Virus record (IMG/VR): IMGVR_UViG_3300032156_000005
Location: 1-64,000 of that record
Length of the DNA stretch: 64,000 bases
Source: a virus
Lineage: Duplodnaviria; Heunggongvirae; Uroviricota; Caudoviricetes
Reading direction: 5' to 3' (one strand)
Below are positions 4,161-62,082 of this stretch, piece by piece. The notes under the pieces were generated by a model, which ran no database searches, had not been told where the DNA came from, and worked only from the letters and a program-made list of their open reading frames with translations. Each line of letters begins with the position of its first letter. Position 1 is the stretch's first letter. The position numbers and the translations under genes were made by a program.

Positions 4161-4167
4161 GACTAGC

Positions 4168-5187
4168 ATGGACCGAAGAGAGTTTATAAAACTGTCTACA
4201 TTAGCTGGTCTAGGGTTATTCGTTGGAAAAACCCTAGGCATGGAACCTAGTTCTTCGGGTTTTATGCAACTGGCGTCCGAGGATCAAACCATCTATGGTG
4301 GCTGGATTCGCAGCGAAGCTGGCCGACGTATGTTCATAAAGAATAGTCCGCGTCCATTTATGAATCAACTGGATGCCGAAATCCGTGGTACAGGCGCTGG
4401 AAAGCAGGCTTTACTTTGGCCATTCCTTGAGAAGGTAACGGGCAAGCCACTACAGCCACATAATCAGGCTATCGGTGATTGCGTTTCACATGCCTACGGT
4501 TTAGGAGTGGATATTTTAACAGCCACTCAGATTGTAAAGAGAGGTTCGCCACAACGCTGGGTCGCTGAAGCAGCAACCGAAGTCATCTATGGTGGATCTA
4601 GGATTGAAATTGGTAAAGCACTGTATAATCGATCCTTGCGTGGAGACGGTGCTGAGGGTTACTGGGCCGCAGAATTTATCAAAAAATATGGCGTTCTACT
4701 TCGCCAAAAATATCTGGGACATGACTTTACTCACTATAGTGGAGGTGTCGCTCGCTCACTAGGATACAATGGTGTTCCAGTAGAACTGGAATCATTATGT
4801 CGCATGCATCCAGTTGGCTGGTGTGCCTTAGTGAATTCGTGGGAAGAGGCGAGAGATTGTATTTATAATGGTTATCCTGTTATACTTTGTAGTACACAAG
4901 GATTTAGTACCAAACGGGGACGCGATAAGAATGGGTATCTCGCACCTAGTTTAGTACAATGGAACCATGCAATGTTACTGACAGGTATTGATGAAGCTTG
5001 CGACCGACCCGGTGGATGCATCCAAAATTCATGGGGTGATTTCATACAGGGTGGAACAAAACTCAATCAACCTGCCGGTAGTTTTTGGGCGGATGCCAGT
5101 GTCATAGATAGAATTTGTAAAGCTGGGGACAGCATCGCAATTAGTTCATACGCCGGTTATCCAAAAAGTGACTATAGTATATGGTAA
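4168..5187 (+). CDS. Tat-signal papain-like (C1 family) cysteine peptidase
   Basis: N-terminal twin-arginine motif RREFIKLSTLAGLGLFVG. Catalytic Cys context QAIGDCVSHAYG (like the QGxCGSCW block of papain-like enzymes). His block NHAMLLTGID and NSWGDFIQGG (like NSWGxxWGxxG). Confidence 0.6.
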   Translation: MDRREFIKLSTLAGLGLFVGKTLGMEPSSSGFMQLASEDQTIYGGWIRSEAGRRMFIKNSPRPFMNQLDAEIRGTGAGKQALLWPFLEKVTGKPLQPHNQAIGDCVSHAYGLGVDILTATQIVKRGSPQRWVAEAATEVIYGGSRIEIGKALYNRSLRGDGAEGYWAAEFIKKYGVLLRQKYLGHDFTHYSGGVARSLGYNGVPVELESLCRMHPVGWCALVNSWEEARDCIYNGYPVILCSTQGFSTKRGRDKNGYLAPSLVQWNHAMLLTGIDEACDRPGGCIQNSWGDFIQGGTKLNQPAGSFWADASVIDRICKAGDSIAISSYAGYPKSDYSIW

Positions 5188-28908: not shown

Positions 28909-29520
28909 CTATATCATCATCAATGTCTTGTACACCTTTGCTTCTGCCAATGCATCAGCCAGGGCGTCGTGGGCATTAATTACTGGTATGTGAAGCTGTT
29001 TACACATAGCCGATAGACCTACCGTAGGGAAGGGAATCTGCTCCCCATGAAAATGGGCCCTATCATTTATTGACACGGCAAAAAGCATGGAATCTCTTGG
29101 ATGTGGATGAAAAAACTGATTGAAACTTTCCATACCCAACCATGCCTTTAGGAACCCAGCTTCAAATGCCCAGTTGTGTGCCAATGGAACAAGTGATTTA
29201 CGAAAAGGTAATTCAAGTCGTTGAAACCACTCATCAAATAAGTCAGCCACACGCTCTTGACTAACACCTTCTTTTGCCAGTTTGAATATGTCAATACCGT
29301 GGATTATCGTAGCTTCCTTTTCAGCACGCTCAGGATACATTGGTGCGATTTTCCAGTAAAAAGGATGCACGTCCTCTAATGGTTCCATGTCGCTATTAAG
29401 TGGTTGTACCGCTATCTGAATAATCTCATGATATCCTGGCATAGTGCCAGTAGTCTCAACGTCCACTGCCGCTAGTAGGTTGTGGTTAATGTTTACTAGA
29501 CTGTTGTAGGTCCTAGGCAT
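28909..29520 (-). CDS. DnaQ-like 3'-5' exonuclease (DEDDh family)
   Basis: Exo I AAVDVETTG, Exo II HNWAFEAGFL, Exo III HDALADALAEAK. Confidence 0.7.
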   Translation of the reverse strand: MPRTYNSLVNINHNLLAAVDVETTGTMPGYHEIIQIAVQPLNSDMEPLEDVHPFYWKIAPMYPERAEKEATIIHGIDIFKLAKEGVSQERVADLFDEWFQRLELPFRKSLVPLAHNWAFEAGFLKAWLGMESFNQFFHPHPRDSMLFAVSINDRAHFHGEQIPFPTVGLSAMCKQLHIPVINAHDALADALAEAKVYKTLMMI

Positions 29521-29999
29521 TAGCGACTCCTCTTCTTCGCTGGCTTCTTCGCTGGCTTCTTCGCTGGCTTCTTCGCTGGCTTCTTCGCTGGCTTCTTCGC
29601 TGGCTCAGTTGGCTGAATGTTGTATGGGTTATCCTGAATCTCCAGTGGATTATTGGGCATGTTATTTAATGACTCGGGTAACAATCCCTCTTTAATCATT
29701 TCTTCCGTCTCAAAGTAGCAGGCAAGATTCCACAAGGCTGCTACCAGATGTGGCTCATCACGATGCCCAATTAGATGCTTACCAGCATGCCTGATAGCAC
29801 TATCGATGTAACACCGTAGATCAATTCCCTTTCTCCAATTATCAGGTCCATATTTGGTGGCACCGTCCTCAAAGTGTTGTGCTAAACGGATCAGTGATCG
29901 CATAGGCAGCAGATCCATTCGCCCCTTGCCTGATGCACAATCTCGCACGGCCCCGGTAGAAAATTGTCTACGTGTTCCAGAATCCTTTAATGTGGCCAT
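29520..29999 (-). CDS. dATP/dGTP diphosphohydrolase-like N-terminal domain protein with C-terminal (PAKK)6 basic tail
   Basis: Motifs SGKGRMDLLP...GATKYGPDNWRKG...RHAGKHLIG.RDEPHLVAALWNLACYFE match, from memory, the phage dNTP-diphosphohydrolase N-domain pattern. C-terminus PAKKPAKKPAKKPAKKPAKKPAKK. Confidence 0.45.
   Translation of the reverse strand: MATLKDSGTRRQFSTGAVRDCASGKGRMDLLPMRSLIRLAQHFEDGATKYGPDNWRKGIDLRCYIDSAIRHAGKHLIGHRDEPHLVAALWNLACYFETEEMIKEGLLPESLNNMPNNPLEIQDNPYNIQPTEPAKKPAKKPAKKPAKKPAKKPAKKRSR
29532..29603 (-). repeat. Perfect 12-bp x 6 tandem repeat (CTTCTTCGCTGG) encoding (PAKK)6
   Basis: Six identical head-to-tail copies between 29532 and 29603. Confidence 0.9.
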
Positions 30000-35628: not shown

Positions 35629-36363
35629 ATGAAGAGTTCACTGGTCACCGTTAATCTTGAGAATCTACCCGCCGTCGGCTATAATGCCGCCAGCGACCTG
35701 CTCAGTGATTTGACCAAGAGTAATGAGTATCTAAACCGTGTCCAGTTGTACACCAAGGGTGCTGCAATTGACAAGGGTCTGATTCCACCTGGACACTACG
35801 GTGTGCCAGATGGGGACGACAACATCAAGGGACTTGGTGTGGAGATTGATATTCTGCCACTATGTTGCCGCCCGAAGGCTTTGGATCTCCGTGATAAGGA
35901 CACAATTGTAACAAATTATGACCCCACCTCGGATACCTTTAAGACAATCAAGGAACTAGGTTCTACGCAGAATTCTGGTTGCATGTATGGTCTTACCTTC
36001 CTTATTTTCGAGCGTAGCACAGGACAATTTTATGAACTATTCTGTGGCACGAAATCGATGCGAACAGAATCGAATAAGATTGCAGACTTTTTGTCTTTGA
36101 CAGAAAAGGACGCTGCATATCTCGAAGAGAAGAAGGGAATTCATACGGATCCACATGGTCCGCTTCCCTGCACGTTGAAGGCTAAGTATGTGACGAAGCA
36201 TAACTATGGCTGGCATGTGCCAGTCTGTGTTAAGTGTTCGACACCATTTAGTAATCTACCCCCTATTGATAGGATTCAAGCCGAGGTGGAAAAGTTTATG
36301 GGACTAAAAAATACGGAGATTGAGAAGGTCGAAGAGACCTCCACTCCGAAGCGGGCACGATAG
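35629..36363 (+). CDS. Hypothetical protein (244 aa)
   Basis: Strong RBS AAGGAG 8 nt upstream. Followed by a strong terminator. No recognised motif. Confidence 0.4.
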   Translation: MKSSLVTVNLENLPAVGYNAASDLLSDLTKSNEYLNRVQLYTKGAAIDKGLIPPGHYGVPDGDDNIKGLGVEIDILPLCCRPKALDLRDKDTIVTNYDPTSDTFKTIKELGSTQNSGCMYGLTFLIFERSTGQFYELFCGTKSMRTESNKIADFLSLTEKDAAYLEEKKGIHTDPHGPLPCTLKAKYVTKHNYGWHVPVCVKCSTPFSNLPPIDRIQAEVEKFMGLKNTEIEKVEETSTPKRAR

Positions 36364-36371
36364 TCGTTTTC

Positions 36372-36420
36372 CAAAGTCGGGAGTGGTCATAAATAGATCA
36401 CTCCCGACTTTGGTTCTTTT
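36372..36420 (+). terminator. Rho-independent terminator
   Basis: Perfect 14-bp stem CAAAGTCGGGAGTG / CACTCCCGACTTTG (36372-36385 / 36399-36412) followed by GTTCTTTT. Confidence 0.75.
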
Positions 36421-36789: not shown

Positions 36790-36862
36790 AAGCAGGGTGG
36801 AGTAGTTGGTAACTCGATTGGCTCATAACCAATAGATCGTCGGTTCAAGTCCGGCCCCTGCC
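36790..36862 (+). tRNA. tRNA with CAU anticodon (Met / fMet-like / possibly Ile2-lysidine)
   Basis: Manual cloverleaf fold. Acceptor 36790-36796 pairs with 36855-36861 (6 bp plus an A1·C72 mismatch). U8, D-stem GAGU/ACUC, D-loop AGUUGGUA with G18G19. Anticodon stem AUUGG/CCAAU, loop CUCAUAA. 5-nt variable loop. T-stem GUCGG/CCGGC, T-loop UUCAAGU. Discriminator A. No encoded CCA. Confidence 0.8.
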
Positions 36863-36910
36863 ACTATGGACGTACCGTTCTTTTGTCACGGTAACTTTTA
36901 GGGGGTAAGT

Positions 36911-37366: not shown

Positions 37367-37590
37367 CACTGGGATGGCTTGGTAATATACTAATTTTGAT
37401 GTCGCTCTGGAAGACTGGATGTAAAAAGAAATCCGGTTGGATCTGGAGTTTTGCGGGTAATATAGTATGGATAGCATACGCCACTCAATTAAGAATGTGG
37501 GATATGTTTTTTGTTGACGCAATTTGTATAGGCGTAGCAATTTACAATTATATTAAATGGAGATCCGATGACAATAAACGAATTGATTAA
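37363..37590 (+). CDS. Small membrane protein (75 aa)
   Basis: Two Trp-rich hydrophobic helices. ATGA overlap with the upstream gene. Confidence 0.35.
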   Translation: MTLGWLGNILILMSLWKTGCKKKSGWIWSFAGNIVWIAYATQLRMWDMFFVDAICIGVAIYNYIKWRSDDNKRID

Positions 37591-37903
37591 CGAATCACAT
37601 CAAACCGCAATTGACAAAGGTTGGTGGGTCAATACAGACCGAAATTTTGGCGAACTCCTCATGCTCATGGTGGGTGAATTATCAGAGGCGATGGAAGAAT
37701 ATAGGAAGCACGGTACAGACGTCTTAAACATGCTGTACACAAAAGATGGAAAACCCGAAGGGATTGCGGTTGAATTCGCCGACGTACTAATTCGTATGGC
37801 CGATACGTGTGCTCACTACCACATTCCACTGGACGAGGCACTACGCATCAAGTTGGAATTCAATAAGACACGATCATATAGGCATGGGGGTAAGTTAGCT
37901 TGA
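37568..37903 (+). CDS. MazG-like nucleoside triphosphate pyrophosphohydrolase
   Basis: All-alpha NTP-PPase signature: LMLMVGELSEAMEEYRK (E-x-x-E-x-x-E) and EGIAVEFADVLIRMADT (E-x-x-D second metal-binding helix). Confidence 0.65.
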   Translation: MTINELINESHQTAIDKGWWVNTDRNFGELLMLMVGELSEAMEEYRKHGTDVLNMLYTKDGKPEGIAVEFADVLIRMADTCAHYHIPLDEALRIKLEFNKTRSYRHGGKLA

Positions 37904-38095: not shown

Positions 38096-38599
38096 ATGAT
38101 ACCTAGTGCAATTCTAATACTTCAGCCGCAGTTACATCAAGGTCTCTACCTAACTCTCTGTTCGGAGATGCTGGGGCGATCCCCCTCCCGATCTGCCGAT
38201 ACGGCGGGTCTATCTGGACTGCCACATCTTCTATCCACTATTGCTGCATTTGGTGGTGGGGCCGAGACAGATGCATACGATCTTCTTTCTTTTGGATTCC
38301 TAATTGCCGCCGACGAACGGGATATTCCAGAAATTTTAGAGGTGGCATCTGGCATGCCATTTGCACTGACAGATACTATTCTACGTGGTACGCAGTCTGT
38401 TATTATAACTGGAACACTTCGGCACTGGATATTGGCGGTATCGAAGGGATGCCGACAGGATCAAACAACAACGGTACGGACTTGCTATGACAAAATATAC
38501 ACAAATTTCTGCCAGCAGGGATTATCGCTAGCTTTTAACGTAACAAAAAGAGATCTACCCGACCATACATTTTATTTAACCCATGAAAAGAGGAGCTAA
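38096..38599 (+). CDS. Hypothetical protein (167 aa)
   Basis: ORF in the accessory block. No motif recognised. Confidence 0.35.
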   Translation: MIPSAILILQPQLHQGLYLTLCSEMLGRSPSRSADTAGLSGLPHLLSTIAAFGGGAETDAYDLLSFGFLIAADERDIPEILEVASGMPFALTDTILRGTQSVIITGTLRHWILAVSKGCRQDQTTTVRTCYDKIYTNFCQQGLSLAFNVTKRDLPDHTFYLTHEKRS

Positions 38600-38601
38600 G
38601 T

Positions 38602-38772
38602 ATGTTGGATTTTAATGAATGGGACGACGAAGACTACGAACGAGAAATCGGATATGATGACGAGTACGAGGATGACGATTGGGATCCCGATTTAGACGAA
38701 GACCTAGAGCCATTTATGGGTGGGGACGAAAAGTGGTATGATGACGACGAGGACGATTGGGACGACGACTAA
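38602..38772 (+). CDS. Hyper-acidic 56-aa protein (candidate DNA mimic)
   Basis: RBS AGGAG 7 nt upstream. MLDFNEWDDEDYEREIGYDDEYEDDDWDPDLDEDLEPFMGGDEKWYDDDEDDWDDD: ~60% Asp/Glu with interspersed Trp/Tyr, no basic residues beyond R/K x3. Confidence 0.4.
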   Translation: MLDFNEWDDEDYEREIGYDDEYEDDDWDPDLDEDLEPFMGGDEKWYDDDEDDWDDD

Positions 38773-38818: not shown

Positions 38819-41590
38819 ATGATACCCTTAAATACGCCCACCACCATCAAGTTGGAAACAACGACCCAATCAGGGGCTCGTGTTAGGGTTCCAGCTACAA
38901 TCTTGGCCACTGACGCCAGGATTGAATTCTTAAAATCCCCCTTCTCTTTGAAGGACGAGATTAAGGCAATGAAGCATGCCGAGTGGCAGGGGTACAAGGA
39001 TCCACCAAGGAAAATTTGGACAGTAGAAAACTGTCAACGTAATTGGTTTCAATTACAGGTCATGATGGGGGAAAATCCCTACGAATGGTTTGATCGTCCA
39101 CTCCAGCATTTCAAATATGATCGCCCTCTGATGGGTCACCAGTTTGATATGTCGGACGCTGGACTCACATACCATTATCAACTCTTCGGAGCAGAAATGG
39201 GCTGCATTGCCGGGGACGCTATTGTTCACGTAAACCGTGCTGGTAGGGGATTTGCGTTTTGTTTGAGTGAACTTTGTTATAAATTCCACGGTGGTCGGAG
39301 TAGCGGCACGACGATGCGTTCCGACACCCGCGGTAGGTCATGGGATCTGAGTATTCCAACCTATGTCCAAGGATTTAAGGGCGACCGAATTGGACTAGTT
39401 AAGATACAGGATGTATTGTATAAGGGGCGGAGAGAGGTTGTTCGCGTGACTTTGGAGACAAAATCACTGACACTGACTCCAGATCACGAGGTCTGCATAG
39501 GAGCCTTTAGGTATGGTAAGTTTAAACCAGTTCAGGATCTAGTAATTGGTGACCGTGTTATGGTACGACTTGATGATGGAGTATCCGATGAGGTTAATAG
39601 CGAGGTACAGGCACTCCCGAGTACGCTAGTAAAGACAACAACGCGTGGTATGGGTTACTGGCTAGATAAAGATGGATATATACGTATCGGCGGTCTAAAG
39701 GGTCATCCACGTTGGGGTGCCCACGGAGTCTACGAGCATCTTCTAGTAATGGAAGATTTGCTTGGCCGACCTGTGCAGATTGGCGAAGAGGTTCACCATA
39801 AGAATAAACAGCGATGGGATAATCGTCCGTCGAATTTAATTTTGTGTGCGACTAAAACAGACCACATGGCATTGCATCAAAATTACAAGAATTTAAAATG
39901 TGGGTGTTATGTGTTTGAATGTGTCACCGGCATTAAAGACGCCGGGTCGATTGATGTCTATGATATCCAATGTGAGGGTCCATACCACAACTTTGCCGCT
40001 AATGATATAATTGTCCATAACTGCGGCAAAACTTTGTCAGCCATTGAAACGATGGAGAAGTCAGGTAAAAAGAAGTGGTGGTGGGTAGGTCCTAGATCTG
40101 GACTCTATGCAATCGAGCGCGAATTTAAGAAATGGGAAATCAGTCCCAACCTTGAAGTGGAGTTAATGACCTACGAGGGTCTGGTAAAACGCATGGGAAT
40201 GTGGAAGTCAGGCGACCCCGCTCCAATGGGTATTGTCTTCGACGAAATCAGCAGGTGTAAAACTGCCAAGACGCAACGAACACAAGCCGCCCAGGCTATT
40301 GCAGACGGTGTCCGTGCTGATTGGGGTCTAGAAGGTTACGTCCTTGGCATGTCTGGCACCCCATCCCCCAAGTCACCTGTGGATTGGTGGGCGCCGACGG
40401 AGATCATTTGGCCTGGATTTTTACGCGAGGGGGATTCTAATGCGTTCAAATTTAGACTTGGGATTCACAAAAAAGAAGAGAGTGCTATGGGTAATGCCTT
40501 CTGGCAACTCGTGGACTGGAGAGACGACGAACGAAAATGTGATGTTTGCGGAGAATTTAAGGAAGAGGGTATGCATTCATGTCGTATCGGCACGGATTTG
40601 AATGGGACGGAATCGGACATTCATGATTTTAAAGCCAGCATAAATGAGGTGGCATACCTTAATGAGCGACTAAAGGGGTTGGTCATCGTGAAGCTGAAAA
40701 AGGACTGCCTCGATCTGCCAGAGAAACAGTATCGACAGGTATTCTGTAAACCATCACCAGCAACCGTCCGAGTTGCTGAAGCCTTGATGAAATCGGCACC
40801 AAATACCATTACTGGTCTAACTCGTCTTCGTGAATTGAGCGACGGGTTTCAGTATAGGGACAAGGTCGTTGGTAAGGAAACTTGTCCAATATGCAAGGGC
40901 ACTTGTTTGAATACTTACTGGGTAGATCCAGAAGATTCTGAGCGTGCTTTTACTATGACCGATATGTTAGACGCAGAGTATGTATCTACATTGATTCAAA
41001 CTGAGATGCCATGTGTATCATGTAATGGCACGGGCGAAGTCGCTAAGATCGAGCGTCAAGTGAAAGAAGTACCGTGTCCCAAGGAAGCGGAGTTAATTAA
41101 TCTCCTAGACGAAAACGAAGAGACTGGCAGGTTGGTTGTATTCGCTGGTTTCACTGGTTCGATTGACAGAGTGACCAACGTATGTATGAAGCAGGGTTGG
41201 GACGTGATTAGGGTTGATGGACGTGGTTGGTTGACTTTTAAGGCTGACGGAGAAACAACAGCCGAAGCGCCATTGGATTATTGGGCTGACGTTGTGAATC
41301 ACCCACGAGTAGTATTTGTTGCACATCCGAAGTCTGGCGGTATGGCCCTGACATTGACCGAAAGTAGAATGATCTGTTTCTACTCGAATGACTACAATCC
41401 AGAATCCCGAAGTCAGGCCGAGGATCGTATACATCGTCCTGGAATGGATATTAATCGTGGAGCAACAATAGTTGACTTGTTACATTTACCCACCGATTTA
41501 AAGGTGCTGGAGATACTGAAAGCTAATAGGCGTCTAGAACTAATGTCTCTCGGCGAATTTCAGGGCTGCTTTCAAGATGTCGAAGCATAG
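38819..41590 (+). CDS. SNF2/DEAD-like helicase interrupted by an intein in the Walker A motif
   Basis: Exteins give Walker A FGAEMG|CGKT and a DExx-like FDEISRC. Helicase C-terminal motif VI is QAEDRIHRPGMDI, preceded by ...VVFAGFTGSIDRV.... Cys4 clusters CPICKGTC...CVSCNGTG. The intein occupies 39203..40021. Confidence 0.7.
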   Translation: MIPLNTPTTIKLETTTQSGARVRVPATILATDARIEFLKSPFSLKDEIKAMKHAEWQGYKDPPRKIWTVENCQRNWFQLQVMMGENPYEWFDRPLQHFKYDRPLMGHQFDMSDAGLTYHYQLFGAEMGCIAGDAIVHVNRAGRGFAFCLSELCYKFHGGRSSGTTMRSDTRGRSWDLSIPTYVQGFKGDRIGLVKIQDVLYKGRREVVRVTLETKSLTLTPDHEVCIGAFRYGKFKPVQDLVIGDRVMVRLDDGVSDEVNSEVQALPSTLVKTTTRGMGYWLDKDGYIRIGGLKGHPRWGAHGVYEHLLVMEDLLGRPVQIGEEVHHKNKQRWDNRPSNLILCATKTDHMALHQNYKNLKCGCYVFECVTGIKDAGSIDVYDIQCEGPYHNFAANDIIVHNCGKTLSAIETMEKSGKKKWWWVGPRSGLYAIEREFKKWEISPNLEVELMTYEGLVKRMGMWKSGDPAPMGIVFDEISRCKTAKTQRTQAAQAIADGVRADWGLEGYVLGMSGTPSPKSPVDWWAPTEIIWPGFLREGDSNAFKFRLGIHKKEESAMGNAFWQLVDWRDDERKCDVCGEFKEEGMHSCRIGTDLNGTESDIHDFKASINEVAYLNERLKGLVIVKLKKDCLDLPEKQYRQVFCKPSPATVRVAEALMKSAPNTITGLTRLRELSDGFQYRDKVVGKETCPICKGTCLNTYWVDPEDSERAFTMTDMLDAEYVSTLIQTEMPCVSCNGTGEVAKIERQVKEVPCPKEAELINLLDENEETGRLVVFAGFTGSIDRVTNVCMKQGWDVIRVDGRGWLTFKADGETTAEAPLDYWADVVNHPRVVFVAHPKSGGMALTLTESRMICFYSNDYNPESRSQAEDRIHRPGMDINRGATIVDLLHLPTDLKVLEILKANRRLELMSLGEFQGCFQDVEA
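39203..40021 (+). mobile_element. Intein (273 aa) with HNH homing-endonuclease domain, inserted in the helicase P-loop
   Basis: Starts Cys (CIAGDAIVHVNRAG, block A) and ends ...NDIIVHN followed by +1 Cys (CGKT). The internal HNH motif is EEVHHKNKQRWDNRPSNLILCATKTDHMALH. Removing it restores the contiguous P-loop GAEMGCGKT. Confidence 0.75.
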
Positions 41591-42286: not shown

Positions 42287-42977
42287 ATTATTGATCGACG
42301 ACGTACTACCTACGCTTTCTAGTAAAGAGTCCGTAGTATGTTTATCCCGTAGTGGAATAGTCCCATGTGACTTCAAGGCTATTACTGACTACATGCAAGA
42401 GACTGGTTATCCACCGACACCTGGACCATACTCAGGAAAAGAGATGTTCCTGGATTTGGGATTTAATACGTATGACGACATAGACTTCGTACCGGACGAA
42501 GGCGTGTCGATTGTACACGATATGAACACACCCTATTGTGGTGACGAATACAGTCTCGTATTTGAATGCGGTACAATGGAGCATATCTTTGATACTGCTC
42601 AAGTGTTTAAGAATACAATTAATCTGTGTGAAGTTGGTGGGACAGTCTGCCATATATCTCCACTGACGTGGTTGAATCATGGTTTCTATAACTTTTCATT
42701 AACACTATTTTACGATGTCTATCGAAACAATGGTTTTGACGACTTCAAATTTTGGTTGATAAACTGGCCTAGGAATTATGGACAAGTGGGCTCCTCAAAG
42801 GCCATGAAGATTGATTTCACACCAACTCAAATTTTACCACCAATTGGTTCTGATTTTTTGATGGTCGCTTTTACGGCACGAAAATCGCATAAGTGTGATT
42901 TTAAGATTCCAATACAAGCGGCCTATGACCCCAGCCTCGCATTAAATACTCCACTACGAAAGCATACAAATGAATAG
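42264..42977 (+). CDS. Putative class I SAM-dependent methyltransferase
   Basis: Motif I-like MFLDLGF, acidic motif II DFVPDEG, motif III region YSLVFECGTMEHIFD, then NLCEVGGTV (L..GG). The true start may be the internal Met near 42393. Confidence 0.45.
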   Translation: MLTLGIVRLLIDDVLPTLSSKESVVCLSRSGIVPCDFKAITDYMQETGYPPTPGPYSGKEMFLDLGFNTYDDIDFVPDEGVSIVHDMNTPYCGDEYSLVFECGTMEHIFDTAQVFKNTINLCEVGGTVCHISPLTWLNHGFYNFSLTLFYDVYRNNGFDDFKFWLINWPRNYGQVGSSKAMKIDFTPTQILPPIGSDFLMVAFTARKSHKCDFKIPIQAAYDPSLALNTPLRKHTNE

Positions 42978-44139
42978 ATGTTTAGCTTGCGGACACTTAG
43001 TTTCACGCCAATTATTCAATCCAGGTCCACAACCGTTATCGGCGTTGAATTTACCTCGGAGCGAGTCTGAAGCAGTGGATGCCAACAGATTTCCAATGAA
43101 CTTTCGATGCTGTGGAATCTGTGGCCATGTGTGGAACACTGACTTCGAGTACACTAAAGTACCCTATGCGGGGGACTCAAATCTCATGTATAACAGCGGT
43201 GCGTTGTGGCAAGACCACATGCAAATGCTGGTGAGTAAGTTAGCTGAGAACAAGGCTATGTGGGTTAAGAATCCAGTTATTGATATTGGTTGTGGCGATG
43301 GGCAATTTCTTTCGTTACTACTCAAAGCAGTACCCGAAGCAAAGTGTGTGGGCTTTGAACCGGGTATTGATGGTACTAAAATTACCGAGTTTGAATGTGT
43401 ACAGGATTACTTTCGACCAGAGCGAGATATTGCGGCAAGACAACCATCGTTACTTATTTGTCGCCACGTCTTAGAACATATCGCGGACCCACGTGATTTT
43501 ATTGCCTCTGTTGCATACTGGTGTGGACAATGTTCCGTTGCGACCGTGTTTTTAGCTGAAGTTCCATGTTGCGAAAAGGCATTGGAGTCGGGGAGAGTGT
43601 CGGACTTTTTATACGAACATGTTTCCAACTTTACACTGAACAGTCTATATGCGATGTTTGGCACTTCTGGTTTTAAGTTGCTTGAAACTTCACGTTTATA
43701 CGGGGACGAAGTGGTCGTTGGATTTTTCCAGCCGCATGAGGAAGCTTTGAAACAGAATCATCGGTCAATGCTTAAATTCTCGACTTACGTGCAGGACTCA
43801 AGAACAAATATCCAATTGAAGCAATCTAATTTGGATGGCGATGTTGTTCTATGGGGTGGCACTGGAAAGAGCGCAGCATTTTTGAATATGTTCGGATTCG
43901 ATGCAGATCGCTTTCCTGTGGTGGTCGATTCAGATCCACTAAAAGTAGGTAGGTATGTTCCAGGAACGGGGCAGAGGATTGATTCACCAGATAGTTTGGT
44001 AGGACGAACACCAACTATCATTATTACAACTGCATGGCGTGCTAATGACATCTATGCAGAGATCAATCGCCGTGGCATTAGATACAAGAGTCTATTAGTT
44101 CTTAAAGACGGAGACTTGAATGAGTATACCCAATCTTGA
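42970..44139 (+). CDS. Zinc-ribbon C-methyltransferase-like SAM methyltransferase (TylCIII/NovU-type architecture)
   Basis: N-terminal C-x-x-C...C-x-x-C zinc ribbon (CLACGH...CCGICGH), SAM motif I VIDIGCGDGQFLSLL, then a C-terminal extra domain (~120 aa). The arrangement is as in NDP-sugar C-methyltransferases. Confidence 0.55.
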   Translation: MNRCLACGHLVSRQLFNPGPQPLSALNLPRSESEAVDANRFPMNFRCCGICGHVWNTDFEYTKVPYAGDSNLMYNSGALWQDHMQMLVSKLAENKAMWVKNPVIDIGCGDGQFLSLLLKAVPEAKCVGFEPGIDGTKITEFECVQDYFRPERDIAARQPSLLICRHVLEHIADPRDFIASVAYWCGQCSVATVFLAEVPCCEKALESGRVSDFLYEHVSNFTLNSLYAMFGTSGFKLLETSRLYGDEVVVGFFQPHEEALKQNHRSMLKFSTYVQDSRTNIQLKQSNLDGDVVLWGGTGKSAAFLNMFGFDADRFPVVVDSDPLKVGRYVPGTGQRIDSPDSLVGRTPTIIITTAWRANDIYAEINRRGIRYKSLLVLKDGDLNEYTQS

Positions 44140-45877
44140 TTTGTATGACTGCCTAGCCCTACTAAAGAGGCAAGACTACCTAAAATTAACTCAAAATTTG
44201 ATCGAGGTAGTTAAACATTTTAACCTTGTCTGTTATACGCAGCTAAGTCGAGCAGAGCGCGTTAATTTAGACGATTGTATGTCTACATTTTTCTTTATTT
44301 TTTCTCATCCCAGTTTTCAAATACCTGCTGATTACGCGAAGGTATTTGTTAATATAAATCATGTCATTTCAAATATGGCAATGATGTCGTCAGTTGGTTC
44401 AACGCTTCCGGCATTAAATCGAGTAGCCCTACAGGATAATAACTACGTAAAGCTTCTAACATTATCAACCTGTCAGACACCACTCGATGTGAATTTTAAC
44501 GACCTGTTTACTCCTAATGCGGAGTTGACTTCGGTTTGGTGGTTGAATTATCAGACGTCAGCAGCGGGCACGCTTACCAAGGAAGTACACGATCGAGTAG
44601 TTTCCCATCTTCAGAGTATGCCAGAGAAGTTTGTATTGTCGGATTTTCGCACGGCACCACTTTATTTTCAAAGTACCTACTACTCTCCTGAAACTGATTA
44701 TATCATTAAAACAGAGTTGAATCGTCAAGTACGATCCAAGTTGTCCAGTGCAAAGATACAAACAATAAATCCTAAGAGAGTGGCCATTATTACTGATAGA
44801 TGGCAACCCACCACAGCGGTATATAAGAGTTGTTATCATCAAATTGAAGCGTTATCGAACAAGTATGACCTAACTTTGGTTTATTTTTCAGAGGACAGAG
44901 AATCAAAGATTGATAGGGGGCTCTTCAAAGAAACTAAGCGAGTTTACTTGGAGCCAGATATGAAGCGATTAAATTTCTCTGAGATCAAGCATAACGATTT
45001 TAAGTTTGCATACTTCCCAGATATCGGCATGAATTACGAGTCGGTTTGTCTGTCAAATATGCAAGTTGCACCAATCATGGCCACGGGTTACGGCCATCCA
45101 GTTAGTACCTTTGGTAGTAAGATTGACTATTTTATTGGTGGTATGGACGCTGAAGTGCCAGAACTCGCCGAGAAGAATTACAGTGAGAGACTAGTGCTTA
45201 TACCTGGAATTGGGGCTCATCCGGTCTTTCCAAACTACGTGCGAAAAAACCCCACCCCGTCTAAATTTATTATCAACTGTTGTTGGACTGCTCCAAAGAT
45301 TAACTACCCAATGCTAGAAGCATTGAAAGAAATCAAGTCGCGGGCTTCCAAGCCAGTGCATTTTCAGTTTTTCCCGTCCTGGACGGTTAGCCGATACCAG
45401 TCCGCATTACCATTTCTAACTGGAATGGACAAGGTATTTGAAGGAAATTCGACGGTATATTTTGACACTCCCTACCAACAATACCTGGAGTTGTTGGAAC
45501 AAGGTCGATTTTCACTAGACTCGTATCCGTTTGGGGGTTATAACACGGTTGTGGACTCATTGTTTGTCGGATGCCCAGTTGTAACGATTGAAGGGTCTAG
45601 ATTCTTTAATAGGGCATCATCTGCGTTAATGCGTAAGGTTGGATTACCTGATCTGATAACAACGAGCGTTGAAGAGTACATTGGACTGGCTGTTGAACTA
45701 ATTGACAATAGCCAAGAATTAGATAGTCTACGATCCGTAATAGGTAGTACGGATTTAAAGAGCCTGTTAGTGGACAACAATGAACCTATTTCATTCGCAA
45801 ATGCCATTGAGTATCTCGTAGATACCCACATCGAATTGAAGGCTTCGGGGAGTCGAAAACCGATAATCTTGGCATGA
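44120..45877 (+). CDS. GT41-family (O-GlcNAc-transferase-like) glycosyltransferase
   Basis: C-terminal catalytic region FDTPYQQYLELLEQGRFSLDSYPFGGYNTVVDSLFVGCPVVTIEGSRFFNRASSALMRKVGLPDLITTSVEEYIGLAVELIDNSQELDSLR aligns by eye with the OGT block [49 protein letters not shown]. Confidence 0.55.
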   Translation: MSIPNLDLYDCLALLKRQDYLKLTQNLIEVVKHFNLVCYTQLSRAERVNLDDCMSTFFFIFSHPSFQIPADYAKVFVNINHVISNMAMMSSVGSTLPALNRVALQDNNYVKLLTLSTCQTPLDVNFNDLFTPNAELTSVWWLNYQTSAAGTLTKEVHDRVVSHLQSMPEKFVLSDFRTAPLYFQSTYYSPETDYIIKTELNRQVRSKLSSAKIQTINPKRVAIITDRWQPTTAVYKSCYHQIEALSNKYDLTLVYFSEDRESKIDRGLFKETKRVYLEPDMKRLNFSEIKHNDFKFAYFPDIGMNYESVCLSNMQVAPIMATGYGHPVSTFGSKIDYFIGGMDAEVPELAEKNYSERLVLIPGIGAHPVFPNYVRKNPTPSKFIINCCWTAPKINYPMLEALKEIKSRASKPVHFQFFPSWTVSRYQSALPFLTGMDKVFEGNSTVYFDTPYQQYLELLEQGRFSLDSYPFGGYNTVVDSLFVGCPVVTIEGSRFFNRASSALMRKVGLPDLITTSVEEYIGLAVELIDNSQELDSLRSVIGSTDLKSLLVDNNEPISFANAIEYLVDTHIELKASGSRKPIILA

Positions 45878-54716: not shown

Positions 54717-56396
54717 ATGCGAACCGGTTCTCGAATTATTGGAGCAAGACGAATGAGATTTCATCTATTTGGGTTAGCGAACATCCCAACGTGTAAAGAG
54801 AATACCTATGAACCCATGACTCCACTGGTTTGGAACATGGCTAAGATGCTACATGACCACGGCCATCACGTCATCTTCTATGGTGCCGAGGGGAGTAATC
54901 CACCTTGTAGCGAGCTAGTAAATATCGTTCCAAAGGATTTGTTACCTGATCCCGCTATTGGAAATCACGGTGTACCCATGGCAGCATGGAAAAACGACGG
55001 CGGCAGCCCTTCCTGGCAGTCTTTCATAAATACTGGACGACTGGAATTGCGTAAACGCTACCAGACGGGTGATATTTCACTCATTAGTTTTGGTCAGTAC
55101 CAAAGATTCGTGGCAGAGGAATCAAAACTCGCTTGTGAATTCATGTGCGGATACTCAGGTATTTTTAGTTACCATAAGGTTTTTCCATCTAGTGCTTGGA
55201 TGCATTATCTATATGGTGAACTCAAAATGGAACGAAACCCCACTTGGACTGATTGTGTCATCCCACATTACCTGGATCTAAGTGACTTCAGATACCAAGA
55301 GGAAAAGGGCGACTATCTTCTATGTCTGGGTCGAATCGATCGAGATAAGGGCACAGACATCGCCATCGACATCGCAAATAGGAGTGGCTCCAAGATCATC
55401 GTTGCCGGTGTCGATATGGTAACGCACGATATTCCGGATTGGATTAAACAAATGCCGGGTAACGTAGAATTTGTTGGCTACGTGGATACAAAGCGAAGAC
55501 TCGAACTATTACGTGGTGCCAAGGCATTATTGCATCCATGTAGGTGGTTGGAGCCATTTGGGATGGTTTTAATTGAATCGTTGGCTTGTGGCACGCCGAT
55601 TATTGCTAGTGACTGGGGTGCCCTACCTGAGATTATTGAAGAGGGTAAGACTGGTTTTTGTTGCCGGGATATGTCTGAGTTTATACAGGCCGTAAAGAAT
55701 GTGTCATACTTAAATCCGCGTGATTGCCGTATTTCCGCCGAACGGGATTATGGGCTGGAGATTGCGTATACAAGGTATATGAAGTACTTTACGCGACTTG
55801 CCAAACTACTGGGAGGTGGCTGGTATGAGACCAGAGGTATCTGGCGTGGACCAGATGTTGTTGGGCGGGTACGCCGACTACAACCGACTGATAAACCACT
55901 ACGAGGGGCAGAGATCGGTGTTGATCGCGGTGCTTTGTCAGGGTATCTCATGTCTGAACTACCTAATCTCAATTTGTTATTGGTTGATACCTGGAGTACC
56001 TTCGCAGACGATTCAGGGTACACAAAATCTGGTGATCTTGTAACCCAACGAACACAAGAACAGCGGGATGCTGATCTGTTTGAAACTATGCGTGTCACTC
56101 CTCGTGATCGTTCTTGTATCTGTAGAATGACATCCGCCGAAGCTTCTGAAAAGGTTTTAGACGGATCGCTTGATTTTGTATTCATTGACGCAGACCATAG
56201 TTATGAGGGTGCCAAATCTGATATACAGTTATGGGCCTCTAAGATACGAGATGGTGGCATTCTTTGCGGGCATGACTTCGGTATGGAAACGTGGTTCCCT
56301 GACTGGGGTGTTACAAAGGCGGTTACTGAGTACGCGGAAAGCGTTGGTAAAACTGTTGAGTTGGGTTCTGATTGGACATGGTTTATCCAGGTGTAA
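54717..56396 (+). CDS. Glycosyltransferase (GT-B, GT1/GT4-like) fused to a class I SAM-dependent methyltransferase
   Basis: GT signature EPFGMVLIESLACGTPIIASDWGALPEIIEEGKTGF (E-x7-E motif). The C-terminal ~190 aa carry MTase motifs GAEIGVDRGALSGYL (motif I-like) and LDFVFIDADHSYEGAKSD (TylF/macrocin-O-MTase-like FIDADH). Confidence 0.6.
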   Translation: MRTGSRIIGARRMRFHLFGLANIPTCKENTYEPMTPLVWNMAKMLHDHGHHVIFYGAEGSNPPCSELVNIVPKDLLPDPAIGNHGVPMAAWKNDGGSPSWQSFINTGRLELRKRYQTGDISLISFGQYQRFVAEESKLACEFMCGYSGIFSYHKVFPSSAWMHYLYGELKMERNPTWTDCVIPHYLDLSDFRYQEEKGDYLLCLGRIDRDKGTDIAIDIANRSGSKIIVAGVDMVTHDIPDWIKQMPGNVEFVGYVDTKRRLELLRGAKALLHPCRWLEPFGMVLIESLACGTPIIASDWGALPEIIEEGKTGFCCRDMSEFIQAVKNVSYLNPRDCRISAERDYGLEIAYTRYMKYFTRLAKLLGGGWYETRGIWRGPDVVGRVRRLQPTDKPLRGAEIGVDRGALSGYLMSELPNLNLLLVDTWSTFADDSGYTKSGDLVTQRTQEQRDADLFETMRVTPRDRSCICRMTSAEASEKVLDGSLDFVFIDADHSYEGAKSDIQLWASKIRDGGILCGHDFGMETWFPDWGVTKAVTEYAESVGKTVELGSDWTWFIQV

Positions 56397-57744: not shown

Positions 57745-58401
57745 ATGCCGAAACGAAGTTGGAAACTTGATGATCCATTGTTTGAATCCCTGCCAAAATA
57801 CGATAAAGATCGCACGCAAGAATTACTAGACTTGATTCAGTCCAATAAGGACACACCAAAAGACGAATTAATACTCCAGCTTCTAGCATTATGCAAGATA
57901 ATTTTACAGAGATTTTTGCGTGGTAATCATGCTATTAAACGGAATCTCCCTGATATAATTGGTATTCTTATGTTGCGTACTTGTGCTTGGGTTGACACCT
58001 TAAAGCATGGGCCGAAAAATAATGTAAAATCCCCGAGTTATTATTGGCAGCTAGTAAAGAATGAAATTAATGATTTTAAACTGGATGGTACTAACCCTAA
58101 TGTCTCTGGTGCTTGGTTGTGTAGGCAAGCAAGACACGGTAAATTACAACCTCAGCAGGTTTATTTGAAAGAGGATCTATTACAGATAAATCCAACTGAG
58201 ACTTTAGAGCTAGAAGATATACTAATCACACTGGCTGAAACGGAACAGGAACGTGGTGTTGTTATCCTGCGATTTAACGGATACACGGATGCCGAAATTG
58301 CAACCCAGTTTAATACAACCAGACGGTGCATTCAACTTATTCGAGCAGGCTTAGAATCTAGGTACGATCACTATTTACAGAGGAACAACCAATGCGTCTA
58401 G
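57745..58401 (+). CDS. Sigma-70 region-4-like transcription factor (putative phage sigma factor)
   Basis: C-terminal QERGVVILRFNGYTDAEIATQFNTTRRCIQLIRAGLESR resembles sigma-70 region 4 / LuxR-type HTH. Confidence 0.45.
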   Translation: MPKRSWKLDDPLFESLPKYDKDRTQELLDLIQSNKDTPKDELILQLLALCKIILQRFLRGNHAIKRNLPDIIGILMLRTCAWVDTLKHGPKNNVKSPSYYWQLVKNEINDFKLDGTNPNVSGAWLCRQARHGKLQPQQVYLKEDLLQINPTETLELEDILITLAETEQERGVVILRFNGYTDAEIATQFNTTRRCIQLIRAGLESRYDHYLQRNNQCV

Positions 58402-58893: not shown

Positions 58894-60933
58894 ATGCCTA
58901 ATAAGCCTTCATTCGCTCAAACAATAATGGATCGAACCTATTCTCACTATTTAGAGGACGAGAATAGGCTTGAAACCTGGGAAGAGATTGCCACCAGAGT
59001 AACAAAAAATGTTATGAAGTCCGTTGGTGTCAATATGCGACAAAAACTCGCACAGGATATTCAACGGTTCATTGCTGAGAAAAAATTGATCCCAGGTGGT
59101 CGATACTTGTATGCCTCTGGTAATACTCGGCATCAAATTAACAATTGTCTGGCTCTAAAAGTCTATGACAGTCGTGAAGGTTGGTCCGAACTCTTGTCCA
59201 AGGCCAGCATGGGTCTAATGACAGGCGCAGGTATTGGTGTGGACTATAGTGATATTCGCTGCGAAGGTTCCCCAATTCGTAAGACAGGTGGAGTCGCGAC
59301 TGGCCCCATCTCTCTCATGCAAATTGTTAATGAGTGTGGTAGGGGGATAATCCAAGGCGGAAATCGTAGGTCGGCGTTATGGGCGGGACTTCGTTGGAAT
59401 CACCCAGATATCCATAAGTTCATTCGTATTAAAAACTGGCCGTCTGAAATACAGTCTTTAAAGGCAAAAGACTATAGTTTTCCAGCGGTTTTAGATATGA
59501 CTAATATCAGTGTTCAGTTGGACGATGATTTCTTTGAAGCCTACCAAGACGACGAACATTCGCAACATGCTTTGGCTCATGGTGTTTATTGGGCCTGCAT
59601 AGAACAAATGCTAAAAACGGGGGAACCAGGATTTTCCATTGACGCTGGAAAAAACGCTGGAGAGACTTTGCGAAATGCACCAGTGAGCGCTGATACGCAT
59701 GTTTTGACAGACGCGGGATATACTAAAGTCAAGGATATCATTGGCATACCAGTAACACTATGGACTGGAAAACAGTGGGCTAAGAATGTTATCTTTGAAT
59801 GTACTGGAATCAATGTCCAGACGCTAAAAGTAAAGATGTCGAATGATCGAGAGATAAACGCGGATCCTAGTCATGAATTTGTTGTACAGCTTGGCCTCGG
59901 ATTGACGATCAAAATACCGGCTAGGGATCTAAAAATTGGTCAGGTATTAAAGTCGGACGACAATGTCACAGTGTTATCGGTAGAACCAGACCGCATCGAA
60001 GACGTATACTGTTGTAATGTAAACTGTCCAGAGCATACATTCGTAGCAGAGGGTGTGGTTATTTCAAATTGCGGTGAATTATCTGCAAAAGAATCTGACG
60101 AACCTTGTAATTTAGCCAGCATCAATCTTTCAAAGGTAGAGAGCCTGGAAGAACTTAAACAGATCGTTGACGTAGCAACCGCCCTCTTACTGGCGGGTTC
60201 CGTATACTCGGACGTGCCATATAGTGATGTGGATAAGATGCGAACAAAGAACAGGCGACTTGGTTTGGGTCTTATGGGCGTACACGAATGGTTACTTATG
60301 CGAGGTAAACCCTATGGACCTGACGAGGAATTGGGGCAGTGGCTTTCTCATTATGCTAAGTCTGGCAAGTATGCAAATAAGTGGGCGGATGAGTGGGGAC
60401 TCTCGCGTCCGAAGAAGACTCGTGCAGTTGCCCCTACCGGGACGACCAGCATCGTAGCAGAAACTACAGGCGGTATTGAACCCATTTTCTGTGTGTCCTA
60501 CAAGCGACGATATCTAAAGGGCGATCAACAGTGTTATCAGTATGTAGTTGATCCATGTGCAAAGCGTTTAATCGAGGGAGGCATAAAGCCAGAATTGATC
60601 GAGGACGCCTACACACTTGCACAAGATGTTGAGAAGCGTGTTGCATTCCAAGCCTGGGTTCAAAACTACGTGGATCATTGTATTAGTAGTACAATCAACT
60701 TGCCAGCATACGGATCCGAGTTAAATAACTCGAATTTAATCCGACCCTTTGGTTCTATGCTAATGCGATATCTACCTCAATTACGTGGGATTACTTGTTA
60801 CCCAGATGGTAGTAGATCTGGTCAGCCGTTGTCACCTGTTCCTTATGAAGAGGCCACGAAGCATGAAGGGGTGGAAATGGTGGAAGAGTCCATGAATATT
60901 TGTAGTCTGAGAGGTGGTAGCTGTGGAGATTAA
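58894..60933 (+). CDS. Ribonucleotide reductase, class II-like, with intein-like insertion at the catalytic Cys
   Basis: Active-site motifs ...N|CGELSAKESDEPCNLASINL (N-x-C-G-E then C-N-L-x-S-I-N 12 aa later, class II spacing). N-terminal allosteric region PGGRYLYASGN. C-terminal redox pair CSLRGGSCGD. No NrdB gene nearby. Confidence 0.6.
   Translation: MPNKPSFAQTIMDRTYSHYLEDENRLETWEEIATRVTKNVMKSVGVNMRQKLAQDIQRFIAEKKLIPGGRYLYASGNTRHQINNCLALKVYDSREGWSELLSKASMGLMTGAGIGVDYSDIRCEGSPIRKTGGVATGPISLMQIVNECGRGIIQGGNRRSALWAGLRWNHPDIHKFIRIKNWPSEIQSLKAKDYSFPAVLDMTNISVQLDDDFFEAYQDDEHSQHALAHGVYWACIEQMLKTGEPGFSIDAGKNAGETLRNAPVSADTHVLTDAGYTKVKDIIGIPVTLWTGKQWAKNVIFECTGINVQTLKVKMSNDREINADPSHEFVVQLGLGLTIKIPARDLKIGQVLKSDDNVTVLSVEPDRIEDVYCCNVNCPEHTFVAEGVVISNCGELSAKESDEPCNLASINLSKVESLEELKQIVDVATALLLAGSVYSDVPYSDVDKMRTKNRRLGLGLMGVHEWLLMRGKPYGPDEELGQWLSHYAKSGKYANKWADEWGLSRPKKTRAVAPTGTTSIVAETTGGIEPIFCVSYKRRYLKGDQQCYQYVVDPCAKRLIEGGIKPELIEDAYTLAQDVEKRVAFQAWVQNYVDHCISSTINLPAYGSELNNSNLIRPFGSMLMRYLPQLRGITCYPDGSRSGQPLSPVPYEEATKHEGVEMVEESMNICSLRGGSCGD
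59677..60069 (+). mobile_element. Mini-intein-like Hint domain (~130 aa) immediately upstream of the RNR catalytic Cys
   Basis: Block A-like ADTHVLTDAGYTKVKDIIG, block B-like INADPSHEFVV, block F/G-like IEDVYCCNVNCPEHTFVAEGVVISN followed by +1 Cys (CGE). The N-terminal junction is non-canonical (no Cys/Ser at the expected position 1; RNAPVSADT), so the left boundary is approximate. Confidence 0.5.
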
Positions 60934-61414
60934 GAATTTAATGCGGCAGGCATACCTCTATGGAGACTGGTTCAGTGTTGACAAGAGCACACATCTGGGT
61001 GCAATACTCGTCGATGACACGGGTAAAATGCGTGCAATGGGGGTAAATACATTCACGGACGACACCCAAAAGGAAGTGGAAGCTAATTATTTCAGGCCGC
61101 GTAAATACCAAGTTACCGAGCATGCGGAACGTTCAGCCATCTACTATGCAGCTAGGAATGGCATAGCAACGCGTGGATTGACACTCATTTGCCCGTGGGC
61201 ATCGTGCCCAGATTGTGCCAGGGCTGCGGTTATGGCCGGTATCAAGGAAGTGATTGGGCATAAACAGGCATTTGATAGGACGCCAGATCGGTGGAAAGAC
61301 GAGATCAATGTAGGTTTCGAGATCCTAAAGGGTGGTGGTGTAACATACACCTTCTACGATGGTAAAATCGGGGACGTAGAGAATCTATTTAATGGGGAGA
61401 TTTGGCATCCATGA
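60914..61414 (+). CDS. dCMP deaminase
   Basis: Zinc-binding motifs HAERSAI (H-A-E) and CPWASCPDCARA (PC-x-x-C) of the cytidine/dCMP deaminase family. Confidence 0.8.
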   Translation: MVAVEIKNLMRQAYLYGDWFSVDKSTHLGAILVDDTGKMRAMGVNTFTDDTQKEVEANYFRPRKYQVTEHAERSAIYYAARNGIATRGLTLICPWASCPDCARAAVMAGIKEVIGHKQAFDRTPDRWKDEINVGFEILKGGGVTYTFYDGKIGDVENLFNGEIWHP

Positions 61415-62082
61415 TAACAGTAGTCGAGCCACGTTTTTATTGGCCAGAAACAACACGCTTTGATGGCATCTTGCAACATATCGAACGCTGTGGACGCACA
61501 TGCTATAGGTCAGAATCTCGGATCACTGAGGATTCATCCGAGAGATTTGTTAAAATGATTCGACAATCAGGGCATGAAAGTGTCCTGGAGCATGTATCTT
61601 TAACTGCGATTGTTGTTTGTAGTCGGGCCTGTTCGCACCAACTTGTTAGGCACAGGATAGCTGCGTACTCTCAGGAGTCGATGCGGTTCTGTAACTATGG
61701 TAAGTCAGAGAGTTTGCAGGTTGTTTGTCCTCCAAGTATTGGACTATCACCACGAGACTATAGCATCGATGATACTGATTATTTGTTTGCAAGTGATATG
61801 ATTAATTATCGACAATTTTGCTGGCTAAATCTACGAGAAACAGAATACGCAGAATATCTTAGCGAACTTAAAGAGGGCATCTTACCAGAGGATGCCCGGT
61901 ATAATTTACCAAATGCAACCAAGACAGAACTTGCCACAACCTTTGATCTGCGTCAGTGGCGACATGTCTTTAAGGAGCGTGCCTTGAATAAACACGCACA
62001 ATGGGAAATTCGCAACATCTTCTCTGGTATTCTTGCAGATCTAAAGACACGGATTCCTGTTGTTTTTGACGATTTGGCATAA
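61402..62082 (+). CDS. thyX: Flavin-dependent thymidylate synthase ThyX
   Basis: ThyX signature RHRIAAYSQESMR (R-H-R-x7-S-x-R). Confidence 0.85.
   Translation: MASMITVVEPRFYWPETTRFDGILQHIERCGRTCYRSESRITEDSSERFVKMIRQSGHESVLEHVSLTAIVVCSRACSHQLVRHRIAAYSQESMRFCNYGKSESLQVVCPPSIGLSPRDYSIDDTDYLFASDMINYRQFCWLNLRETEYAEYLSELKEGILPEDARYNLPNATKTELATTFDLRQWRHVFKERALNKHAQWEIRNIFSGILADLKTRIPVVFDDLA

Follow-up and report, generated by a model that had tools for sequence, protein, structure and literature searches.

A hyper-acidic, predicted disordered small protein encoded beside a helicase gene in uncultured siphophages: a candidate nucleic-acid mimic

Layout of the locus

The subject of this report is a hyper-acidic protein of 56 amino acids (aa) encoded in a 64,000-nucleotide (nt) stretch of viral DNA, positions 1 to 64,000 of the IMG/VR record IMGVR_UViG_3300032156_000005, which is referred to below as the window. 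The window belongs to a 121.5-kb metagenomic contig (ENA ERZ27248148) from an uncultured phage; it carries a siphovirus-like gene set, in which the genes for terminase, portal, major head and tape-measure proteins lie at 6-21 kb, and no close relative of this phage was found among 50,697 deposited phage genomes. The open reading frame (ORF) of the acidic protein lies between a conserved gene of 167 codons and a helicase gene, with the following features.

38096..38599, + strand: conserved 167-aa gene of an unannotated family, directly 5' of the acidic ORF and its coupled operon partner
38590..38595, + strand: Shine-Dalgarno (SD) sequence GAGGAG (AGGAG at 38591-38595), 6 nt 5' of the acidic-ORF ATG
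38602..38772, + strand: hyper-acidic 56-aa ORF, ATG to TAA, characterized by its translation and composition
38665..38715, + strand: semi-conserved central motif Y-E-D-D-D-W-D-P-D-L-D-E-D-L-E-P-F, residues 22-38, identified from alignments; family consensus YEDDxWDPDxDEDE
38819..41590, + strand: SNF2-like helicase gene, interrupted by an intein, directly 3' of the acidic ORF

The first-pass annotation of this DNA had described such an ORF with its own ribosome-binding site, immediately upstream of the helicase gene, and each of these points agrees with the sequence: the ORF and its 56-aa translation match exactly at 38602..38772 (+), AGGAG is present 6 nt before the ATG, and the helicase gene begins after a gap of 46 nt. 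The SD sequence is embedded within the final codons of the upstream gene (E-K-R-S), whose TAA (38597-38599) ends 2 nt ahead of the acidic-ORF ATG, and this stop/start spacing is an arrangement of translational coupling between the two genes. Aspartate and glutamate (D/E) account for 32 of the 56 residues (D22 + E10); the measured 57% is slightly lower than the "about 60%" first given, and the extreme acidity stands, since the window has 360 ORFs of 40 aa or more and the runner-up among them reaches 23%. The protein also contains ten aromatic residues (W4, Y4 and F2; 18%) and only one lysine and one arginine, which leaves a net charge of approximately -30.

Coding status, patterning and predicted disorder

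Relatives of the locus were retrieved through the helicase and through the 167-aa protein from IMG/VR, JGI metagenomes, GTDB genomes and an assembly index. One syntenic slot, directly after the 167-aa gene and before the helicase gene, yielded 17 different hyper-acidic ORFs in contigs of related uncultured siphophages. They range from 35 to 109 aa and contain 47-66% D/E and 11-25% aromatic residues, and synteny was far more informative than sequence searches for finding them. A phmmer and profile search of 5.8 billion proteins, in which low-complexity words saturated the candidate list, returned a single homologue (P0001); no Pfam, PHROGs or NCBIfam family matched at E <= 0.01, and tblastn against 50,697 phage records, with the low-complexity filter on, gave no match. 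A scan of IMG/VR with the core motif D-[DE]-x-D-P-D-L-D-[DE]-D recovered three contigs already known and unrelated larger proteins, and no further small acidic ORFs outside the clade. The IMG/VR contigs L047, L049 and L052 carry an unrelated 457-aa ORF with VGVDDYDPDFDDDIDEAKK at approximately residue 198, closely like the family core YEDDEYDPDLDDDEFEGLIDEA; this likeness could be due to chance or to a shared short linear motif.

Fourteen of the 17 acidic ORFs (all except P0001, L040 and L044) were inspected at the DNA level. In every one, the ATG lies right after or overlaps the upstream stop codon and is preceded by an SD-like motif, and the acidic frame is the sole frame open throughout the 14 loci, the other frames being broken by stops. 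GAN codons make up 47-65% of these ORFs, and their third position drifts with genome composition. The stop codon of the acidic ORF abuts or overlaps the helicase start in eight loci (L003, L004, L007, L008, L011, L033, L035 and L044). In Nei-Gojobori comparisons of the acidic ORFs, the proportion of non-synonymous differences (pN) was 0.05-0.32 versus a synonymous proportion (pS) of 0.14 to saturated, with omega approximately 0.1-0.3 where calculable; the ORF is clearly under purifying selection, with a constraint weaker than that on the neighbouring gene in close pairs. P0001 (58 aa) is 91% identical to the window protein, and its indels are whole residues, in frame. The window copy contains no tandem DNA repeats, has no RNA structure beyond that of shuffled controls (z = +0.84) and matches no Rfam family, which speaks against the ORF as a DNA or RNA element. 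Because of the synteny, the conserved SD sequence and ATG, the open frame, a pN far below pS and this absence of repeats or an RNA element, the acidic ORF is, as judged from sequence comparison, a bona fide protein-coding gene. Coding is supported by start signals kept in 14 of 14 loci and by the pN and pS values, and the gene looks translated.

The loci L009 and L040 are 98.2% identical over 8.5 kb, and 139 of their 154 mismatches (~90%) fall in one 1.9-kb block (L009 5735-7600) that starts in the middle of the acidic ORF and spans most of the helicase gene, so that a recombination breakpoint lies inside the acidic ORF. This pair shows seven non-synonymous changes in the acidic ORF versus none in the neighbouring gene, and ORF-specific hypervariability, as in an arms race, was considered; it was rejected because the mosaic block also takes in the helicase gene, which points to recombination and not to a hot spot.

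The acidic family aligns poorly: identity to the window protein is 33-65%, with M1 and D28 as the sole invariant positions. An MSYNKFEFD-like segment opens about half of the sequences; the central core, Y-E-D-D-x-W-D-P-D-L-D-D-D, is followed in some by an amphipathic F-E-G-[LM]-I-D-E-A-M, and a D-rich C-terminal run with a W-[DE]-D ending recurs. Repeats account for the changes in length; examples are (DEDYD)n in L008 and (DDDY)10 in L028. In L028, the acidic ORF (3842-4171) encodes 109 aa with ten perfect DDDY repeats, an array that reveals expansion by slippage, and an extra 62-aa ORF lies between it and the helicase gene. Acidic runs of three to four Asp/Glu are interrupted by an aromatic residue roughly every 4-5 positions, and the spacing of the aromatic residues is more regular than in shuffled sequences (summed coefficient of variation 8.25 versus 11.37 +/- 0.79; reached by 0 of 2000 shuffles), a comparison that is indicative only, the sequences being interrelated. 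Given the poor alignment, the repeat-driven change in length and the even aromatic spacing, the chief objects of selection appear to be composition and patterning, along with a short core motif.

The protein is predicted to be intrinsically disordered. Its mean net charge of 0.54 at a normalised hydropathy of 0.28 places it far on the disordered side of the Uversky charge-hydropathy boundary, aliphatic residues make up only 11% of it, and the central segment contains Pro and Gly-Gly. AlphaFold2, run with a two-sequence alignment only, yielded no secondary structure, a mean predicted local distance difference test (pLDDT) score of 55 and a predicted template-modelling (pTM) score of 0.13.

Distribution and genomic setting

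An equivalent acidic ORF is present in the same slot in all close relatives, and three lineages possess both flanking genes without the acidic gene. In L026 the slot is empty, with 13 nt between the upstream stop and the helicase start; in L024/L025 it holds a non-acidic 78-aa ORF; and in L056/L057/L038 it holds a glycosyltransferase gene, with no acidic ORF anywhere in the 10 kb inspected. The replacement and extra ORFs in the slots of L024 and L028 have no PHROG match. Identity of the 167-aa protein is 43-51% in the non-carriers versus 47-49% in some carriers (L009, L010, L011, L022, L023 and L028). Because it is absent or replaced in lineages no more distant than some carriers, the acidic gene is, on this pattern of distribution, an accessory gene, and such slot turnover is typical of accessory genes. 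The first description of its surroundings as an "accessory region" is the single inaccurate point, since the gene sits in a syntenic position within a nucleotide-metabolism/replication operon, albeit in a slot that undergoes gene turnover in deeper relatives.

That neighbourhood is a block encoding a DUF5906 primase, a ParB-like protein, MazG, the SNF2-like helicase, a DNA polymerase, ribonucleotide reductase, dCMP deaminase, ThyX and a ligase. Two features upstream of the acidic ORF bear on its transcription.

36371..36413, + strand: strong terminator-like hairpin with an 18-bp stem
36791-36864: tRNA-Met (CAT) gene, after the terminator-like hairpin

From this hairpin to position 42500 on the + strand no comparably strong terminator-like site was found, only weak stems of 5-7 bp, and for this reason MazG, a 64-aa ORF, the 167-aa ORF, the acidic ORF and the helicase gene probably form one transcription unit. 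The hairpin and the tRNA-Met gene mark the start of this unit.

The 167-aa protein belongs to a large family (521 cluster representatives at E <= 1e-3), to which we tentatively assign a ThyX-like fold. A "Rosetta stone" fusion of an acidic segment to this family was sought and discarded, as none occurs among the best 150 of the 521 representatives. The helicase is ~23-26% identical to YuA-like and HTVC023P helicases; no acidic ORF lies upstream of either, and a deep linkage of the acidic ORF to the helicase family was rejected accordingly. In the window, the helicase gene contains an intein of 273 aa with an HNH homing-endonuclease domain (39203-40021), which splits the Walker A motif (GAEMG, then the intein from C to HN, then CGKT). 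Of nine IMG/VR relatives, eight are without it, their helicases being 650-670 aa long, and the 997-aa helicase of L006 contains a comparably sized insertion.

Other genes of the window deserve mention. Just ahead of the strong terminator lies a highly conserved 244-aa ORF (35629-36363; 60-78% identity across relatives), which has many invariant Cys, Gly and Pro residues and no similarity to Pfam, PHROGs, NCBIfam or PDB sequences or to T7 gp2.5; it may be a replication protein or single-stranded DNA-binding protein (SSB) that has escaped recognition, and it was considered as a tail-less SSB partner of the acidic protein. The nucleotide-metabolism set (29520-29999 on the - strand, 37568-37903 and 58894-62082) is unusually rich; among its members are MazG, ribonucleotide reductase, dCMP deaminase, ThyX and a MazZ-like dATP/dGTP diphosphohydrolase N-terminal domain (PF18909). 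Methyltransferases and glycosyltransferases are encoded at 42970-45877 and 54717-56396, and together with the nucleotide-metabolism set they hint at modified DNA. A 218-aa ORF at 57745-58401 has a weak match to extracytoplasmic function (ECF)-type sigma factors (PF07638, E = 7.8e-5) and is possibly a phage-encoded sigma factor.

Candidate functions and comparison with known systems

The reading that we favour, tentatively and at somewhat less than an even chance, is that the acidic protein, as a disordered polyanion, mimics nucleic acid or serves as its decoy and in this way blocks a host protein that binds DNA. Electrostatic nucleic-acid mimicry is the most likely and the most economical mechanism; for a disordered polyanion with regular aromatic residues and a short motif, occupying a basic nucleic-acid-binding surface is the best-supported mode of action. 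With its acidic runs the peptide would imitate the phosphate backbone, and the aromatic residues would insert like bases or serve as anchor residues; produced alongside the phage helicase in the replication phase, the peptide would then fill a basic DNA- or single-stranded DNA (ssDNA)-binding groove of its target and thereby exclude nucleic acid. The target would more probably lie in the host than in the phage, a preference drawn from the patchy, accessory distribution and from the precedents of Gp44, gp5.9, Gam and Ocr; a nuclease or a defence, RNA-polymerase or nucleoid protein could serve, as for T7 gp5.9 and SPO1 Gp44. The original suggestion of a DNA mimic therefore survives in part: the gene is real, its product is an extreme polyanion for which mimicry is the most economical mechanism, and the patchy distribution fits an accessory or host-interaction gene, but the proposed Ocr/ArdA/Gam type does not hold.

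Several observations weigh against a host-directed mimic. No homology to any characterised mimic was found in Pfam, PHROGs, NCBIfam, tblastn or protein searches; the characterised stand-alone phage DNA mimics (Ocr, gp5.9 and Gam) are folded, and the acidic region of Gp44 works with a folded DNA-binding domain, which the acidic protein lacks. The AlphaFold2 run on two sequences is, by itself, weak support for disorder. The gene is located neither at a genome end nor within an early-gene cluster, and its translation is coupled to that of core-looking genes for replication and nucleotide metabolism. Finally, its retention in every close relative fits a phage-internal role equally well.

Because of the tight coupling to the helicase gene, a target in the phage replisome is a serious rival, which we consider possible though less likely than the mimic. 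The protein would be a trans-acting "acidic tail", a replisome accessory that binds basic patches on the phage helicase, polymerase or a tail-less SSB and gates DNA binding or acts as a bridge, the role that is played in cis by the acidic aromatic C-terminal tails of T7 gp2.5 and gp4, E. coli SSB and T4 gp32. Its composition is nearly identical to that of the gp2.5 tail ASKPRDEESWDEDDEESEEADEDGDF (58% D/E, 8% aliphatic, with W and F; T7 proteins for the composition comparison were taken from NC_001604), which is reported to contact polymerase and helicase and to compete with the oligonucleotide/oligosaccharide-binding (OB) fold (PMC10359462). The stop/start coupling with the upstream gene, and in the eight loci named above with the helicase start as well, is consistent with such a role, as are the transcription unit shared with MazG, the 167-aa gene and the helicase gene, the retention under purifying selection in all close relatives and the L009/L040 pair, in which the C-terminal half of the ORF shares the mosaic block with the helicase gene. 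However, L026, L024/L025 and L056/L057 possess the same helicase and 167-aa genes and yet no acidic ORF. Compensation in cis by helicase tails was rejected: all helicases are mildly acidic at the C-terminus, and those of lineages without the acidic ORF show no compensating pattern. Nor did the best 150 representatives of the 167-aa family include a fused acidic tail. The terminal aromatic residue with a free carboxylate, as in the SSB, gp2.5 and gp4 tails, is missing from the window protein, which ends in WDDD; moreover, no SSB was recognised in the window, and a free-standing tail was without precedent in our literature search.

A broader version of this idea, to which we give a slightly lower likelihood still, envisages a free-standing, fully disordered "acidic tail in trans", a phage-encoded counterpart of the SSB/gp2.5 C-terminal tail detached from any folded domain, that gates the SNF2-like helicase or the polymerase, or else decoys host proteins that dock on acidic SSB tails or ssDNA-binding grooves.

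A polyanionic function without mimicry appears improbable. The protein might act as a chaperone or charge-neutraliser for very basic phage proteins, as a sink for divalent cations or polyamines, or as a condensate client or scaffold through aromatic "stickers", and its extreme charge, its evenly spaced aromatic residues and a composition conserved more than the sequence would all suit these roles. The 64-kb window, however, encodes no strongly basic partner ORF, the W-D-P-D-L-D core and the MSYNKFEFD motif at the N-terminus point to the binding of a specific partner, and such a function has no known phage precedent.

We consider it very unlikely that the protein folds into a B-DNA mimic like Ocr, ArdA, Gam or gp5.9, with rigidly arrayed carboxylates that block type I restriction, BREX or RecBCD. 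The protein is small, acidic and phage-encoded, and gp5.9 demonstrates that 52 aa suffice for a mimic (PMC9836394), but there is no family match and no predicted helix or fold, aliphatic residues amount to 11% versus 31-35% in Ocr and gp5.9, and D/E to 57% versus 25-29%. In addition, the relatives vary in length (35-109 aa), repeats ((DDDY)n) and sequence so widely as to be incompatible with a fixed scaffold. The resemblance to Ocr, ArdA and Gam claimed in the first-pass annotation is thus not borne out, the D/E content being twice and the aliphatic content one third that of Ocr and gp5.9, with no match in Pfam, PHROGs or NCBIfam and no fold. The charge array fixed at B-DNA phosphate spacing that it had suggested looking for is likewise unlikely with no fold predicted and so few aliphatic residues. 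Profile, fold and composition tests all failed to place the acidic protein in the Ocr, ArdA, Gam or gp5.9 families, to which, on these sequence and model-based criteria, it does not belong.

The notion that the ORF is no gene at all, but arose by chance in GA-rich DNA or represents a DNA/RNA element (iterons or a structured helicase leader), is the least credible of all: the low-complexity, purine-rich sequence and the single homologue from the protein search would suit it, but it is effectively refuted by the ORF, start and SD sequence kept in 14 of 14 loci with stops in the other frames, by a pN far below pS and by the lack of tandem repeats, excess RNA structure or an Rfam match.

Few phage DNA mimics have been characterised: the EVADES catalogue (10.1101/2025.06.06.658234) lists 268 anti-defence proteins, 11 of them such mimics. 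If the favoured reading, a disordered mimic, is true, mimicry would reach beyond rigid scaffolds to "fuzzy" polyanions in the form of stand-alone disordered mini-proteins of ~50-65% acidic residues, and a minimal peptide of 35-79 aa would become available to probe or block enzymes that bind DNA. Should the phage helicase or polymerase be the target instead, the protein would be the first SSB-like acidic tail supplied as a separate gene; and if an acidic tail does act in trans, it would define a new class of stand-alone disordered nucleic-acid or tail mimics, characterized by composition and aromatic spacing and not by fold. The patterns described above suggest a family that is kept by selection for exactly such properties, namely composition, aromatic spacing and a short core motif. 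The acidic protein is a well-supported candidate, and its origin in an uncultured phage limits its immediate value.

Among known systems, the least similar are the folded mimics. T7 Ocr (gp0.3) shares with the window protein a strongly negative net charge (-28 versus -30) and, like ArdA, a viral or mobile-element origin; unlike the window protein, Ocr is a folded protein of 117 aa with 29% D/E and 35% aliphatic residues, and it differs in genomic position, being encoded by the first gene to enter the cell. T7 gp5.9, a non-essential RecBCD inhibitor that acts by DNA mimicry as a parallel coiled-coil dimer (PMC9836394), is closer in setting: it is likewise acidic and of ~50 aa, and its small gene lies inside the replication/recombination block and overlaps the start of the next gene (NC_001604), as the acidic gene lies within a replication module and is coupled to its neighbour. 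This analogy is positional only, since gp5.9 has 25% D/E and 31% aliphatic residues versus 57% and 11% in the window protein, for which no helix, and hence no coiled coil, is predicted.

In composition, the acidic protein resembles a flexible acidic tail, unlike a folded mimic. The C-terminal 26 residues of T7 gp2.5 have 58% D/E (57% in the window protein), 8% aliphatic residues (11%) and, as in the window protein, W and F. The flexible tails of gp2.5 and gp4 contact polymerase and helicase and are competitors of ssDNA for a basic cleft (PMC10359462), and the acidic gene is similarly set in a replication module beside a helicase gene. In contrast to these tails, the window protein is free-standing, twice as long and dispensable in related lineages. 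SSB-type tails have an aromatic C-terminus, whereas the window protein ends in WDDD and its relatives in WDD, WDE, WEDV, GWN, DPI or EAV; such tails are also covalently attached to an OB fold or a helicase, whereas the acidic protein is a separate ORF in 17 of 17 cases, with no fusion in the best 150 representatives of the 167-aa family or in the helicases inspected.

The other close counterpart is the Bacillus phage protein SPO1 Gp44, residues 56-122 of which are disordered, contain 57% D/E and are reported to be an ssDNA mimic that binds the beta/beta' subunits of RNA polymerase (PMC8208478; PMC13401047); this region has been predicted and simulated to be a random coil through charge repulsion (PMC8208478). 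The window protein shares with it a D/E content of 57%, the near absence of Lys and Arg (two in the window protein), predicted disorder and a phage origin. It differs in being rich in W, Y and F, in having no detected similarity to characterised families and in consisting of the acidic 56 aa alone, whereas the 237-aa, three-domain Gp44 needs its folded N-terminal DNA-binding domain for toxicity. By analogy, then, the acidic protein would work most like the acidic region of Gp44 or an SSB-type tail, minus the folded domain to which each of these is attached.
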